The translations under genes were made by a program, and so were the position numbers. The notes beneath the pieces were generated by a model. The model was not told the DNA's origin and ran no database searches. It worked only from the letters and a program-made list of their open reading frames with translations. Shown piece by piece: positions 1,296 through 38,221 of a stretch of DNA of 38,221 nt (position 1 is its first letter; every line of letters begins with the position of its first letter). The stretch is from Candidatus Hermodarchaeota archaeon (lineage in GTDB: Archaea; Asgardarchaeota; Hermodarchaeia; Hermodarchaeales; Hermodarchaeaceae): contig JAEOUH010000053.1 in assembly GCA_016839365.1 (NCBI GenBank), forward strand, positions 1 through 38,221, written 5' to 3'.

Positions 1296-2233
1296 GTTGT
1301 TGCCTTCATTGGTTTGGTTTTGACCGTGGGAGTATGGACGGCTTTCTTGAAGGTGGAATGGGCAAAGGTGAACCGGAGATAAGTGCCAACGAGGTCAGGG
1401 ACTTCTTTGACAATTTTCTCAGGAGCAGGGGCTTTGCTGGGATCCTGAACCACAATGCTGCCCAGAGCACCAATCATTTTGGCGGCTTGATCTTCAACAT
1501 TCTCGGTGGGTCCAAAACAGCCTCTACAGGGAGACAGGGCAGTGGGGCAGCGGGCTTCGCAGCCAGCTTGAGTGCTGGGTCCAAGGCATTGATAGCCTTG
1601 TTCGAGGAAACAGCGTTCGGTGAAGACTATGTCAGTGCCCCAGCGTTTGAATTCGGTGACGGCTTTTTCTTCTTTGATGAGGGGGCATTGATCACAGACA
1701 GTTTTAGGTTCGAGGTGGAATTCTCGACCTTCGAGTAGACAGGTAACTAGTTCCGCAATGAGTTTGGGTGGGGGTGGACACCCGGGGAGGACATAGTCGA
1801 CTTTAACAAAGTCGTCGACCGGGTGCAGCTCTTCGAGCATTGGGGGTACGATTTTAGGGGGGATGATTTTCTTGGGGTTGACGGTAGACTTGGTGTTGAT
1901 GTAGACTTCTTCCATGATTTCGTCCTTGGTATGCAGGTTCGCTAGTCCCGGGACTCCGCCAAAGGCGGAGCAGGCTCCGAAGGCGACTAGGATTTGTGAA
2001 CGTTCTCTGAGCATTTTGAGGCGTTCGAGGTGTTCTTCGTTACGGACGCCGCCGGAGACGAAGCCGACAGTGACACCTTCTTTGGGTGGTTCACGGTGAT
2101 CCATGAGGACTTGGATATATTTGAGGTCGATGGCGTCGAGAACGTCTGCGAGCGCCAGGTGTAGGTCGAGGATGGCGATTTCGCAGCCGGAACAGATGCT
2201 GAGGGTTTCCACTGCTAGACTGGGTTTGGTCAT
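1292..2233 (-). CDS. mvhG: [NiFe]-hydrogenase small subunit MvhG
   Basis: [43 protein letters not shown] Fe-S motifs; lies between mvhD and mvhA. Confidence 0.93.
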
Positions 2234-8396: not shown

Positions 8397-8943
8397 CCTT
8401 TTTGCTCTCCTTGTAGTTAACTAGTTTATCAAAGCCGGTTTGTTTGATAATGTGTTGAATCTCCTTGACGGCTTTGGGGTATGAATGAACGGTGGGAGGC
8501 AGGGGGTCCAACCCGAGCTCTTCCCGCATTTTGCTCCACTTTGGATCATCGATGGGAACTGCGTGTCCCGTTTCGATGAGTTTATGGGAGACACCTTGGT
8601 GTTCGGGTCGCATATACCCTGCTTGGCAGGAGAGATTTCGGAGATAAAGAATGGCTTCCGTAACATCGATTTTACGTGGGCACCTTTCAGTACAAGTGCC
8701 ACATGTCGAACAGAGCCACAGATTTGGGTCTGATAGGACTTCTTCCCGTAGTCCTAGGAGAGCCTTACGGATTAGTTGACGGGTTCTGTAAGCGGTGCGA
8801 CGCCCCGCGGGACAAGACCCGGTACAGGTTCCACATTGAATACAAGAACGAATACGATCCAGACCTGCCTTTGTCATGTCGTCAGCGAGCTTACCATCTA
8901 TTTTTGACCCATTAATTACCCGGCGATCGATCAACAAGGTCAC
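8383..8943 (-). CDS. hdrC: Heterodisulfide reductase subunit C
   Basis: CIQCGTCTGSCP and LWLCSTCGTCTERCPR; GTG start. Confidence 0.95.
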   Translation of the reverse strand: MTLLIDRRVINGSKIDGKLADDMTKAGLDRIRSCIQCGTCTGSCPAGRRTAYRTRQLIRKALLGLREEVLSDPNLWLCSTCGTCTERCPRKIDVTEAILYLRNLSCQAGYMRPEHQGVSHKLIETGHAVPIDDPKWSKMREELGLDPLPPTVHSYPKAVKEIQHIIKQTGFDKLVNYKESKKDGKT

Positions 8944-9060
8944 CCCAAGGAGGTATGCCAGGGCACCTTGACATTTGTAAAGGTAAAAACATTTTCCTCT
9001 TACCGTGTTCCTTGAGGTTAATTTGTGAACCGTAGGGATGACAAGATGAACGCATTTCAG

Positions 9061-9810: not shown

Positions 9811-10404
9811 CTATTCGATTAGGTCGAGTTTATTGAGGCGATACAAGAGGACTTCCACATCATCTTGGGTCATCCGCAGGTTTTCAGCGATTTCCTTTGG
9901 GGTTTTGTTGCCGCAACACTGTTTGGCGACATTATATTCGATTTCGCTGATTTGCCCTAATTTGACCATAAGTTTGGGAAGGCCTCGTTTTAGTTTGGGT
10001 TGGGGTGCATCCTTTTCGCCGATAAACCCGTTATTAAGCATTTGATTCAGTTCAGGAGTGAAGGAGAAGAAGACGAGTTTTCCATCCCATGCTTTGAGAG
10101 TTTCTTCATAAAGGTCTGAAAACCGTTCAATGACTTGGTCAAGGGCCTGAAGGACTTGGAGTCGGTTGTCTTCTTTGTCAACAACGGCAGCTATAACGAT
10201 GTAATCGCCAGCAGCATAGGTAATGTAGAATTCACCCATCTCGACGACGCGTGCTTCACCTTTCCCTTTTGAAATCATCCGGGCAAACTCACGGATTGCA
10301 GAAAAAAAGCCGGCCACTAGCGTCGAGTCAAGTTCTAATTCTCCAAATTTTTGGTCAAGGAGACAGACCCCGCTGGGATGCATCAGATAAACTACGTGTA
10401 GCAT
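9811..10404 (-). CDS. Longin-like domain protein with C-terminal winged HTH
   Basis: Starts at ATG 10404: MLHVVYLMHPSGVCLL...LDSTLVAGFFSAIREFA...F..ELNQML fits the longin/adaptin-sigma pattern. C-terminal KTPKEIAENLRMTQDDVEVLLYRLNKLDLI is an HTH. The track's extension to 10728 reads through the tRNA. Confidence 0.8.
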   Translation of the reverse strand: MLHVVYLMHPSGVCLLDQKFGELELDSTLVAGFFSAIREFARMISKGKGEARVVEMGEFYITYAAGDYIVIAAVVDKEDNRLQVLQALDQVIERFSDLYEETLKAWDGKLVFFSFTPELNQMLNNGFIGEKDAPQPKLKRGLPKLMVKLGQISEIEYNVAKQCCGNKTPKEIAENLRMTQDDVEVLLYRLNKLDLIE

Positions 10405-10459
10405 GCGTAAGGCCCCGTGGGAGAGGAAATCCGTAGTAGAAGCTAGGGTATTCGCAGTC

Positions 10460-10464
10460 AAAAA
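10460..10464 (-). terminator. Possible oligo-T terminator after the tRNA
   Basis: TTTTT on the - strand, 16 nt after the CCA. Confidence 0.35.
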
Positions 10465-10497
10465 GGTAACGATGGGAAATTGGTGCGGGGGGAGGGA

Positions 10498-10524
10498 TTT
10501 TCGGAGCTCGCAGTGCGCTGTTCC
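10498..10524 (-). other. tRNA intron 4, position 59/60 (27 nt)
   Basis: Outer GAGGG/CCCUC, central UUCG/CGAA, bulges AA|G and AA|U, inner GA/UC. Confidence 0.9.
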
Positions 10525-10555
10525 TTCGAACCCTCGAACCGCTGCCGGACAGGAT

Positions 10556-10576
10556 GTCTCATTTACCTGGTTAGAT
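10556..10576 (-). other. tRNA intron 3, canonical position 37/38 (21 nt)
   Basis: Central CUCA/UGAG, bulges AG|A and AC|A; the outer helix is the anticodon stem. Confidence 0.92.
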
Positions 10577-10583
10577 CTTGAGT

Positions 10584-10613
10584 AACGCCGTCTACCTGCC
10601 CTTGCAGGCGACT
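10584..10613 (-). other. tRNA intron 2, position 30/31 (30 nt)
   Basis: Relaxed BHB: central CGCA/GGCG (one A-G mismatch), bulges GG|A and UU|A, inner hairpin GUCGCCUGC/GCAGGUAGAC. A 31/32 register gives the same product. Confidence 0.82.
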
Positions 10614-10638
10614 CCTGCGCCGTTAACCAGGCTTGGCT

Positions 10639-10661
10639 GTGGGGTCTCCACCAGAAGAGAT
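10639..10661 (-). other. tRNA intron 1, position 8/9 (23 nt)
   Basis: Strict hBHBh': outer UGGC/GCCA, central GGGG/CCCC, bulges GU|A and AC|A, inner UCUCU/GGAGA. Confidence 0.9.
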
Positions 10662-10745
10662 ACCCCCGCCACCTGTAAGGCGGCAAAGACCCCTTTCGGA
10701 AGGGTCCCCCGCACGAGAGTTGTGGCAAAGGATTATTTCTGAATG

Positions 10746-10762
10746 TTTTAAACGTTTGTTTT
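10746..10762 (-). promoter_or_regulatory. BRE/TATA promoter of the tRNA
   Basis: AAAACAAACG-TTTAAAA on the - strand; implies a start site near 10725 and a leader of about 55 nt. Confidence 0.6.
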
Positions 10763-37436: not shown

Positions 37437-38221
37437 CTACCCCCAAATGAGGCGGGGTAGAAAACGGACTTTTGATATCAACAATCCTAGGACGCTCCGC
37501 AACAACACAGGAGAGGTAAACGCGGTCGTAATAAGTCGACCTTGGCGGTCAATATCCCCATAATCTTCAATGATTTGCCGAGCGCGACTATGCTGGAGGC
37601 TGTTAAAAAGGCGATCGAGCTCTTCGTTGGTGAGAGTATTAATTAATCGGCGAAGAAGGGACATCAGATGGAGTTGGCGGCCCCAACTACGTTTCCATCT
37701 GCGCTCGTAACGTTGGAGTTCTTTATGATTATAGGATTCACCCTGAAGAGCTTGGTGAATGCTCGAAGCAGCCATGATTGCACAGGCACCTCCCGCGACC
37801 ACACCACCACCAGTAGTTGCTTTCGTTTGACCCGCCGCGTCTCCGATGTTTACGAAGCGTTCAGCAATTGTCCGCGCGGAAGGACCGCCTGAATAAACAA
37901 TGCCTCCATAGCGTTTGTCAATCTTGGCCCCTGCGATAAGGTGGCAGTTCTTGAGAAATTTGTCCAATGCTGAGGGGGCCTGTTTGTTGACCGTTGCTAG
38001 CCCAACCCGTGCATGCTGGGCGTCAAGGGGAATCAGCCAGGCGAAGAAGTCTTTTGCTAGTTGGGTGTCAAAGAACAAGTGCACCGTATCTGTCGGTAAT
38101 GAGACGTTCGAGACTTCATACTGGAGGGCAGGGAGCATATAGGCCCGTTTCGGTCTAGGTAAGTTGAAAGGCTTCATCAGTTGGGCATTGATTCCTTCGG
38201 CGTTGACCACCAAGTGGGTGC
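37437..38221 (-). CDS. Geranylgeranyl reductase family flavoprotein (5' end outside the window)
   Basis: VVNAEG, FAWLIP, IGDAAGQTKATTGGG; frame open to the window edge. Confidence 0.88.
   Translation of the reverse strand, partial: THLVVNAEGINAQLMKPFNLPRPKRAYMLPALQYEVSNVSLPTDTVHLFFDTQLAKDFFAWLIPLDAQHARVGLATVNKQAPSALDKFLKNCHLIAGAKIDKRYGGIVYSGGPSARTIAERFVNIGDAAGQTKATTGGGVVAGGACAIMAASSIHQALQGESYNHKELQRYERRWKRSWGRQLHLMSLLRRLINTLTNEELDRLFNSLQHSRARQIIEDYGDIDRQGRLITTAFTSPVLLRSVLGLLISKVRFLPRLIWG

Follow-up and report, generated by a model that had tools for sequence, protein, structure and literature searches.

A tRNA-Leu(CAA) gene with four bulge-helix-bulge introns in a Hermodarchaeia genome and candidate folding helpers in its precursor

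The stretch of DNA analyzed here, to which we refer as the window, comprises 38,221 nucleotides (nt) of contig JAEOUH010000053.1 from a Candidatus Hermodarchaeota archaeon (assembly GCA_016839365.1). On its minus strand, the window carries a gene for a transfer RNA (tRNA), the leucine tRNA with anticodon CAA (tRNA-Leu(CAA)), which is interrupted by four introns of the bulge-helix-bulge (BHB) type. We are confident that this locus is the only Leu(CAA) gene found in the genome and that its four introns would be cut out by an alpha/beta type of the endonuclease EndA and its exons joined by RtcB, along a pathway that appears to involve folding helpers in the precursor itself. The gene, its introns and splice motifs, their conservation, and the enzyme genes are all present, while we infer from the sequence that the transcript is spliced, in which order this happens, and which helper roles the leader and the third intron play. 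The original prediction, made from the letters of this DNA, had called the same tRNA with four BHB introns in a probably Asgard host; its coordinates and lengths proved exact, and the genome belongs to the Hermodarchaeia.

The raw locus (10669-10481, minus strand) is 189 nt long, begins with GCGGGGG, ends with CCCCCGC-A-CCA, and consists of intron sequence in 101 of its 189 nt. Removal of four segments of 23, 30, 21, and 27 nt at tRNA positions 8/9, 30/31, 37/38, and 59/60 leaves an 88-nt class II tRNA-Leu(CAA) with an encoded CCA (Table 1). ARAGORN recognizes the spliced product over its full length as tRNA-Leu(CAA) and assigns it a class II variable arm as well as A73 and CCA. In the cloverleaf drawn by the program, a 7-base-pair (bp) acceptor stem is combined with a D arm, a 5-bp anticodon stem, a 7-nt loop with U33, and a 5-bp T stem; the variable arm has 14 nt with a 3-bp stem, the anticodon is CAA, and A73 is followed by CCA. 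Length and layout equal those of three other leucine tRNAs of the genome, to which the spliced 88-mer aligns without gaps at 65-74 of 88 identical positions, and the CCA directly follows the discriminator in every listed tRNA locus whose 3' end is shown. The same four introns emerge if no splice motif is considered at all: when the raw 189 nt are globally aligned with the mature form of the paralogue tRNA-Leu(UAA), the identical four gaps open.

All four junction pairs, as read from the sequence and recovered by our own search, have 3-nt bulges that flank a 4-bp central helix and are cut after the second base. The central helix is complete in introns 1, 3, and 4 and has three of its four pairs in intron 2. 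Intron 1 forms a full motif with the central helix GGGG/CCCC (G3-G6 with CCCC), a 4-bp outer helix TGGC/GCCA that joins leader position -2 through C2 to G10-A13, and an inner helix TCTC/GAGA of 4-5 bp. In intron 2, the central helix CGCA/GGCG contains one A.G mismatch, which recurs in all 17 aligned genomes (see below), and the motif is of the relaxed kind, with an outer helix of 2 bp and a strong inner hairpin of 3+5 bp. Intron 3 pairs C32-A35 with TGAG (central helix CTCA/TGAG) and uses the anticodon stem as its outer helix, with an inner helix that is nearly nil at about 1 bp (hBH), while intron 4 combines the central helix TTCG/CGAA with the T stem as outer helix and an inner helix of 2-4 bp. 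The same geometry also recovers the canonical introns in other tRNAs of the genome. When the exact BHB geometry is forced in ViennaRNA, each of the four introns has a low absolute probability (0.005-0.06), a consequence of the penalty on 3-nt bulges in its energy model, and we give these values no weight.

Standard tRNA finders had been expected to miss the gene, and the raw locus indeed escapes both ARAGORN, which makes no call whether its intron mode is on or off and whether it is given the window, the raw locus, or the whole genome, and the tRNA covariance model of Rfam: no family reaches its gathering score in the window, and a search with RF00005 at an expectation value (E) of up to 1 over the genome has no match at the locus. 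The BHB-aware search of the whole genome that the original prediction had called for was run with our own cloverleaf-constrained program on both strands of all 93 contigs. A permissive version gave hundreds of spurious parses in 3 kilobases and was discarded for a strict one, which, besides better BHB scores, demands U8, A14, U33, a GG in the D loop, the T-loop motif, and CCA and which returns exactly one parse at the Leu(CAA) locus. The cloverleaf pins each junction to 2-4 sliding alternatives, and we roughly estimate that random sequence would offer helices as good as these at all four junctions with a probability of ca. 6e-5, flanking helices not counted. Neither ARAGORN nor the RF00005 search nor our own BHB-aware census found a second Leu(CAA) gene in the genome. 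A 'tRNA-Leu(caa)' called by ARAGORN on another contig (G000:C77:4336-4443, minus strand, with a 33-nt intron) was rejected as a second copy: at 75 nt and with its short variable loop, this tRNA belongs to class I and is probably a tRNA-Val(CAC) with a misplaced intron call, its anticodon loop reading CTCACA.

The locus is present in 14 of 14 genomes of the same genus and 4 of 4 further genomes of the same family that were searched. One of these 18 orthologous loci (G004, L015) ends early at a contig end, and the alignment thus comprises 17 genomes. BLAST found no orthologue in 22 other Asgard genomes, which is expected with such short exons and says nothing about absence. Across the alignment, the exons are constant in length and 96.6-100% identical with 6 of 88 columns variable, whereas the introns are 58-69% identical with 87 of 115 columns variable and lengths that vary by 1-2 nt. 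In all 17 genomes, the split exons still combine into complete cloverleaf stems except for the D-arm pair 13:22, which is unpaired in every one of them, and the variable-arm stem in exon 4 shows one compensatory change. The BHB helices are paired in 75-100% of cases as opposed to 37-52% when the partner columns are slid. Their central helices change only to G.U, and introns 1, 2, and 4 show compensatory double changes in their inner helices. All alignment cells are paired in the outer and central helices of intron 4 as well as in both the central helix and the inner helix of intron 1, the latter with one compensatory AU/CG switch, and three pairs of the intron 2 helices change on both sides among the relatives. 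This conservation over both genera indicates that the four-intron state is older than their split and under selection.

The genome encodes two EndA genes, one on contig G000:C43 (186 amino acids, aa) and one on contig G000:C19 (196 aa), each of which has an N-terminal and a C-terminal EndA domain (PF02778 and PF01974), and it also contains a gene for RtcB. With E=6e-46, the 186-aa protein is a match to 3P1Z_B, the catalytic alpha subunit of Aeropyrum pernix EndA, and it retains the Tyr/His/Lys motifs, with ...FAVYRRGPGIDHS... and ...SVRKRF... aligning to the A. pernix alpha subunit. Its 196-aa paralogue has Thr where M. jannaschii EndA has the catalytic His in ...DKEHS... and is therefore probably a structural beta-like subunit. 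An EndA of either the (alpha-beta)2 or the epsilon2 type had been expected, and sequence match and motifs point to the two-subunit alpha/beta kind. This type of EndA has been linked with non-canonical and multiple introns (PMC4090602), and K41 of the alpha subunit aligns within an ungapped stretch with K44 of A. pernix, the lysine of a crenarchaea-specific loop that gives the A. pernix enzyme its broad substrate range (PMC3488258). An alpha/beta EndA of this broad-specificity crenarchaeal kind would cut each of the introns, and RtcB would join the exons. As a side observation, the gene for the beta-like subunit (G000:C19, core at 55223-55483) lies within a cluster of tRNA genes for Asp, Tyr, Thr, Leu-UAA, Thr, and Pro at 54020-57621, and the RtcB gene (G000:C19, 38833-40143) adjoins a tRNA-Ser(TGA) gene (38023-38134).

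The splice motifs are mutually exclusive with three of the four tRNA stems, which creates a folding problem. The BHB of intron 1 uses G1-G6 and G10-A13 and the BHB of intron 2 uses C25-A28, so that these two motifs together occupy strands of the acceptor, D, and anticodon stems and no cloverleaf can exist while the two introns are being cut; intron 4 is local to the T arm. A candidate helper is found in the leader, where a spare copy of the 5' acceptor strand, GTGCGGGGG, is complementary over 9 bp to the 3' acceptor strand together with A73 and C74 and is predicted to pair with the 3' acceptor strand (P=0.97). The two copies of the acceptor strand are 36 nt apart, and the GCGGGGG of the leader copy is 100% identical in 17 genomes as compared to 65% for the whole leader. 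In a partial census of 34 tRNA genes of this genome, from which several isoacceptors are missing, introns at 8/9 occur in three genes (His, Leu-CAA, and Leu-UAA), and exactly these rank as the top three for complementarity between leader and 3' strand with 9, 9, and 8 nt, respectively, versus at most 7 nt in the other genes. Similarly, four leucine tRNA genes have one common acceptor stem, but the upstream copy is confined to the two that carry an 8/9 intron. A single relative, G001 of the same genus (L014, G001:C12, ca. 1503-1737, minus strand), has no intron 1 in its Leu(CAA) gene, although introns 2-4 are in place, and it also lacks the duplicate acceptor strand: the segment between the two GCGGGGG copies is gone as well, and the upstream copy is joined directly to T8-A9-GCC. 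We speculate that this state arose by a single recombination with complementary DNA of the spliced tRNA, with crossovers in the upstream copy and in exon 2. Separately, we observed that the tRNA-Lys(CTT) gene (G000:C15, minus strand, census 8912-9012 on the reverse strand), which has no 8/9 intron, is preceded by a copy of its first eight bases, GGGCTCGT, 57 nt upstream and beyond a TATA-like box; this copy may be a remnant of a duplication.

A second candidate helper is intron 3, the interior of which (TAACCAGGT) is complementary over 9 bp to the D loop (GCCTGGTTA, 10632-10624). This pairing is kept in 13 of 13 genomes of the same genus with two compensatory double changes, and the sister genus lacks it. 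In ViennaRNA, the probability of the intron 3 central helix rises from P=0.15 to 0.98 once intron 2 has been removed, while that of the intron 2 central helix falls from P=0.53 to 0.08 if intron 3 is removed first, and the predicted order of splicing is thus intron 2 before intron 3. Taken together, we tentatively propose, as something possible rather than probable, that heavily interrupted tRNA precursors of Hermodarchaeia carry dedicated folding helpers in cis, namely a leader decoy of the 5' acceptor strand required for cutting at 8/9 and an intron that clamps the D loop, which together would keep the RNA in a non-cloverleaf fold and dictate that introns 1 and 2 are spliced before intron 3. 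The spare strand in the leader would at first hold the 3' acceptor strand, and the interior of intron 3 would hold the D loop. Intron 2 would then leave before intron 3 because only after its removal can the anticodon stem form, which is the outer helix of the intron 3 BHB. Removal of intron 3 would release the D arm, and the true acceptor stem would finally displace the leader, which would be trimmed.

A number of points weigh against the account given so far, and some of them concern the gene itself. With a genome that is 84% complete, a second Leu(CAA) gene could exist, and the tRNA-Leu(UAA) that is present might wobble-read UUG, in which case a Leu(CAA) gene need not be essential. Both would suit a decaying or silent pseudogene in an organism that reads UUG with another tRNA, yet the exons are nearly unchanged over two genera despite the drift of the introns, the cloverleaf stems and BHB helices are retained along with a conserved promoter box, CCA, and trailer, and the searches of this genome found no other Leu(CAA) gene, so we regard this explanation as very unlikely. 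Practically negligible, in our view, is the chance that the region is instead the N-terminal part of a 305-aa open reading frame (ORF; 9811-10728, minus strand) or that the tRNA fit is an over-fitted chance match. The listed frame is open across the whole tRNA gene and a permissive BHB search can yield many spurious parses, but the ORF has no Pfam match, the differences of 1-2 nt in intron length among relatives would break any reading frame and thus rule out a coding function, and an in-frame ATG at 10404 opens a plausible protein further downstream. A chance match is also difficult to reconcile with our estimate for random helices and with the alignment that used no motif. The ORF track reads the tRNA as protein, as had been pointed out, and the ORF over the locus is a mechanical run-through; the downstream coding sequence (9811-10404, minus strand) probably starts at the ATG at 10404, encodes ca. 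197 aa, and begins with MLHVVYLMHPSG.

Other points concern the helpers. The sister genus has the same four introns without the helix between D loop and intron 3, which therefore cannot be essential. Replacing the spare strand in silico leaves the pairing of exon 1 with intron 1 unchanged at 37 and 60 C, and the strand helps only at 75 C (0.76 vs 0.42; shuffled leaders, 0.21-0.89). Moreover, in the model, the spare strand stays paired to the 3' strand (P=0.91-0.99) when no intron is left, which makes formation of the acceptor stem hard to account for, and the three-of-three association with 8/9 introns rests on about two independent cases because Leu(CAA) and Leu(UAA) are paralogues. The upstream GCGGGGG could be a footprint of the way in which intron 1 or the leader originated, e.g., by local duplication, without any role in the splicing of what would then be a plain multi-intron gene devoid of helpers. 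Besides the absence of a spare-strand-specific effect in the modeling at 37-60 C, this would agree with an arrangement that Leu(CAA) and Leu(UAA) have in common by descent and with G001, where the upstream copy is itself exon 1 and the two copies are hence homologous by duplication or deletion. We nevertheless consider such a footprint rather unlikely: its 7 nt are invariant within a leader that has drifted, the matching copy of tRNA-His differs in both sequence and spacing (-15 vs -45) and is therefore of independent origin, and the sole census gene that reaches 7 nt without an 8/9 intron does so upstream of its TATA box. The presence of two acceptor-strand copies at this short distance could also mean that the upstream one is the true exon 1 and that the stretch between them is spliced out as a fifth intron. 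We give this idea very little credence, given that its central helix would consist of CGGG opposite CGGG, two strands that are not complementary, that the upstream copy is followed by A rather than the universal U8, and that the single parse of the strict search starts at the downstream copy while all products that the permissive search derived from the upstream one were malformed; the fifth-intron reading was dropped on grounds of geometry.

Table 1. Features of the tRNA-Leu(CAA) locus and its surroundings (positions are those of the window).
Feature	Positions	Strand	Evidence or remark
Exon 1 (E1), tRNA positions 1-8	10662..10669	-	100% identity in 17 genomes
Intron 1, 23 nt, site 8/9, full hBHBh' motif	10639..10661	-	BHB-aware search and spliced product
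Exon 2, tRNA positions 9-30: D arm, position 26, start of anticodon stem	10614..10638	-	96.6% identity, length fixed
Intron 2, 30 nt, site 30/31, relaxed BHB	10584..10613	-	BHB-aware search and relatives
Exon 3, 7-nt micro-exon, tRNA positions 31-37, bears anticodon CAA	10577..10583	-	100% identity
Intron 3, 21 nt, canonical 37/38 site	10556..10576	-	BHB-aware search and relatives
Exon 4, tRNA positions 38-59: anticodon stem 3' strand, 14-nt variable arm, T stem 5' strand, most of T loop	10525..10555	-	
Intron 4, 27 nt, site 59/60 in T loop	10498..10524	-	BHB-aware search and relatives
Exon 5, tRNA positions 60-76: T stem 3' strand, acceptor 3' strand, discriminator A73, encoded CCA	10481..10497	-	
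Spare copy of 5' acceptor strand, GTGCGGGGG	10706..10714	-	7-nt copy GCGGGGG = 10712-10706
TATA-like box TTTAAAA, presumed tRNA promoter	10746..10752	-	ca. 80 nt upstream of gene
Leader hairpin 1, directly after spare strand	10689..10705	-	by eye in alignment
Leader hairpin 2, GCCGCC / GGTGGC, extends into G1-C2	10668..10684	-	read from alignment
T5 run in strongly conserved trailer block ATCGTTACCTTTTTGAC, presumed terminator	10460..10464	-	

The presumed promoter consists of a TATA-like box, which is conserved in all 17 genomes with four invariant bases (columns T6, T7, A9, and A10), and of an A-rich stretch directly upstream (10753-10759) that resembles a B recognition element (BRE). Judging from the usual archaeal spacing, transcription would start at about 10727-10722 and give a leader of ca. 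50 nt. The leader contains two hairpins, the first of which persists despite replaced sequence in G008, G011, and genus g2 and is paired in 81% of alignment cells (columns fixed on G000), while the second would take the place of the outer helix in the BHB of intron 1 and has, as read from the alignment, a G.U pair that is changed to A-U in G005, G006, and G008. Downstream of the gene, the trailer block ATCGTTACCTTTTTGAC (10455-10475, minus strand; in the same place in L002-L019) is near-invariant over two genera and far above the rest of the trailer in its conservation. It may be a terminator, a promoter element of the downstream gene, or both.

Introns are widespread among the tRNA genes of this genome: 22 of the 34 genes in our census have at least one and 8 have at least two, with Leu(CAA) carrying the most at four. 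Three further parses (C19- 25650, C83+ 12928, and C85- 12874) with long or weak 'introns' were set aside as spurious or redundant. Leu(UAA) (G000:C19:56945-57055, plus strand) has one 8/9 intron, which equals intron 1 of Leu(CAA) in its length of 23 nt and in both ends (ATCTC...GAGACCCCAC), and Leu(TAG) has a 32-nt intron at 59/60, the same site as intron 4 of Leu(CAA), so that introns are common to paralogous leucine tRNA genes by descent or conversion. It had been suspected that other tRNAs of this lineage may hide likewise, and the BHB-aware census does find further tRNAs hidden in the same way in this genome. ARAGORN and the Rfam tRNA model overlook a substantial share of its tRNA genes. 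With 23 tRNAs above threshold in Rfam versus at least 34 in the partial census, the apparent gaps in the tRNA sets of Hermodarchaeia metagenome-assembled genomes are largely an artefact of detection. The census found no gene for tRNA-Ile, Trp, Phe, Glu(CTC), or Leu(CAG) and only one (Met) with a CAT anticodon; the absent isoacceptors may lie on missing contigs or outside the limits of the search (acceptor-stem introns, more than five introns, or introns above 130 nt).

The number of introns is not new, although the original prediction had thought that four in one tRNA might be undescribed. Valentin-Alvarado et al. 2024 (PMC11291895, Supplementary Data 4) list four introns in tRNA-Arg(TCT) and Ile2(CAT) of Freyarchaeia by both tRNAscan-SE and R2DT, as well as four by R2DT in Leu(GAG) of Freyarchaeia and Trp(CCA) of Atabeyarchaeia-2. 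According to a preprint (10.64898/2026.10.13.758758), one Asgard tRNA gene can contain as many as five intervening sequences, and tRNAscan-SE misses 30% of them in the focal families of that study. These published genes remove the novelty of the intron count but not the gene call. The multi-intron tRNA genes of Atabeyarchaeia and Freyarchaeia/Jordiarchaeia (PMC11291895; 10.64898/2026.10.13.758758) are similar to ours in belonging to the Asgard phylum and in their short BHB introns of ca. 20-30 nt at canonical and non-canonical sites, and many of those in Atabeyarchaeia and Freyarchaeia are likewise missed by standard annotation. For Leu(CAA), however, three introns are listed in Atabeyarchaeia and two in Freyarchaeia (PMC11291895) as compared to four here, and the host here is of the Hermodarchaeia, a class that is not named in the main text of the preprint (10.64898/2026.10.13.758758). 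The main texts of both reports make no mention of leaders or of a leader copy of the acceptor strand. In the literature that we searched, no paper was found on tRNA introns of Hermodarchaeia, nor one that describes a leader acceptor copy beside 8/9 introns, pairing of the D loop with intron 3, or the order of intron 2 before intron 3. Among our results, novelty may thus lie solely in the candidate helper elements.

Our finding of hidden tRNA genes thus extends the reports on Atabeyarchaeia and Freyarchaeia to another Asgard class. Beyond annotation, the locus and its 18 orthologues supply testable candidates for a response to the folding problem, i.e., a decoy strand, a clamp between intron and D loop, and an ordered pathway. 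Neither the annotation nor the folding aspect changes the current picture of archaeal tRNA splicing.

To our knowledge, three introns are the maximum in tRNA genes of crenarchaea. The multi-intron tRNAs of the Thermoproteales (Sugahara et al. 2007, 2008; Marck and Grosjean 2003; reviewed in PMC4090602) are like Leu(CAA) in their multiple and non-canonical BHB/HBh'/hBH introns, an encoded alpha2beta2 EndA of broad specificity, and related introns between paralogous tRNA genes. They differ from it in their phylum, Thermoproteota, and in the three introns cited for crenarchaeal tRNA genes by a 2014 review (PMC4090602). In the red alga Cyanidioschyzon merolae (PMC3728597), nuclear tRNA genes can likewise be interrupted by several introns, which lie at non-canonical sites and have BHB-like junctions, but this alga is a eukaryote with a heterotetrameric Sen complex. 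Regarding the leader, the closest parallel comes from the split and tri-split tRNAs of Nanoarchaeum equitans and Caldivirga maquilingensis (Randau 2005; Fujishima 2009; reviewed in PMC4090602), in which leader or trailer sequences outside the mature tRNA pair with other RNA and thereby allow the substrate of the endonuclease to form. There, leader and trailer build the BHB between two transcripts, whereas the leader copy of tRNA-Leu(CAA) would only sequester the 3' acceptor strand in cis, outside any BHB.

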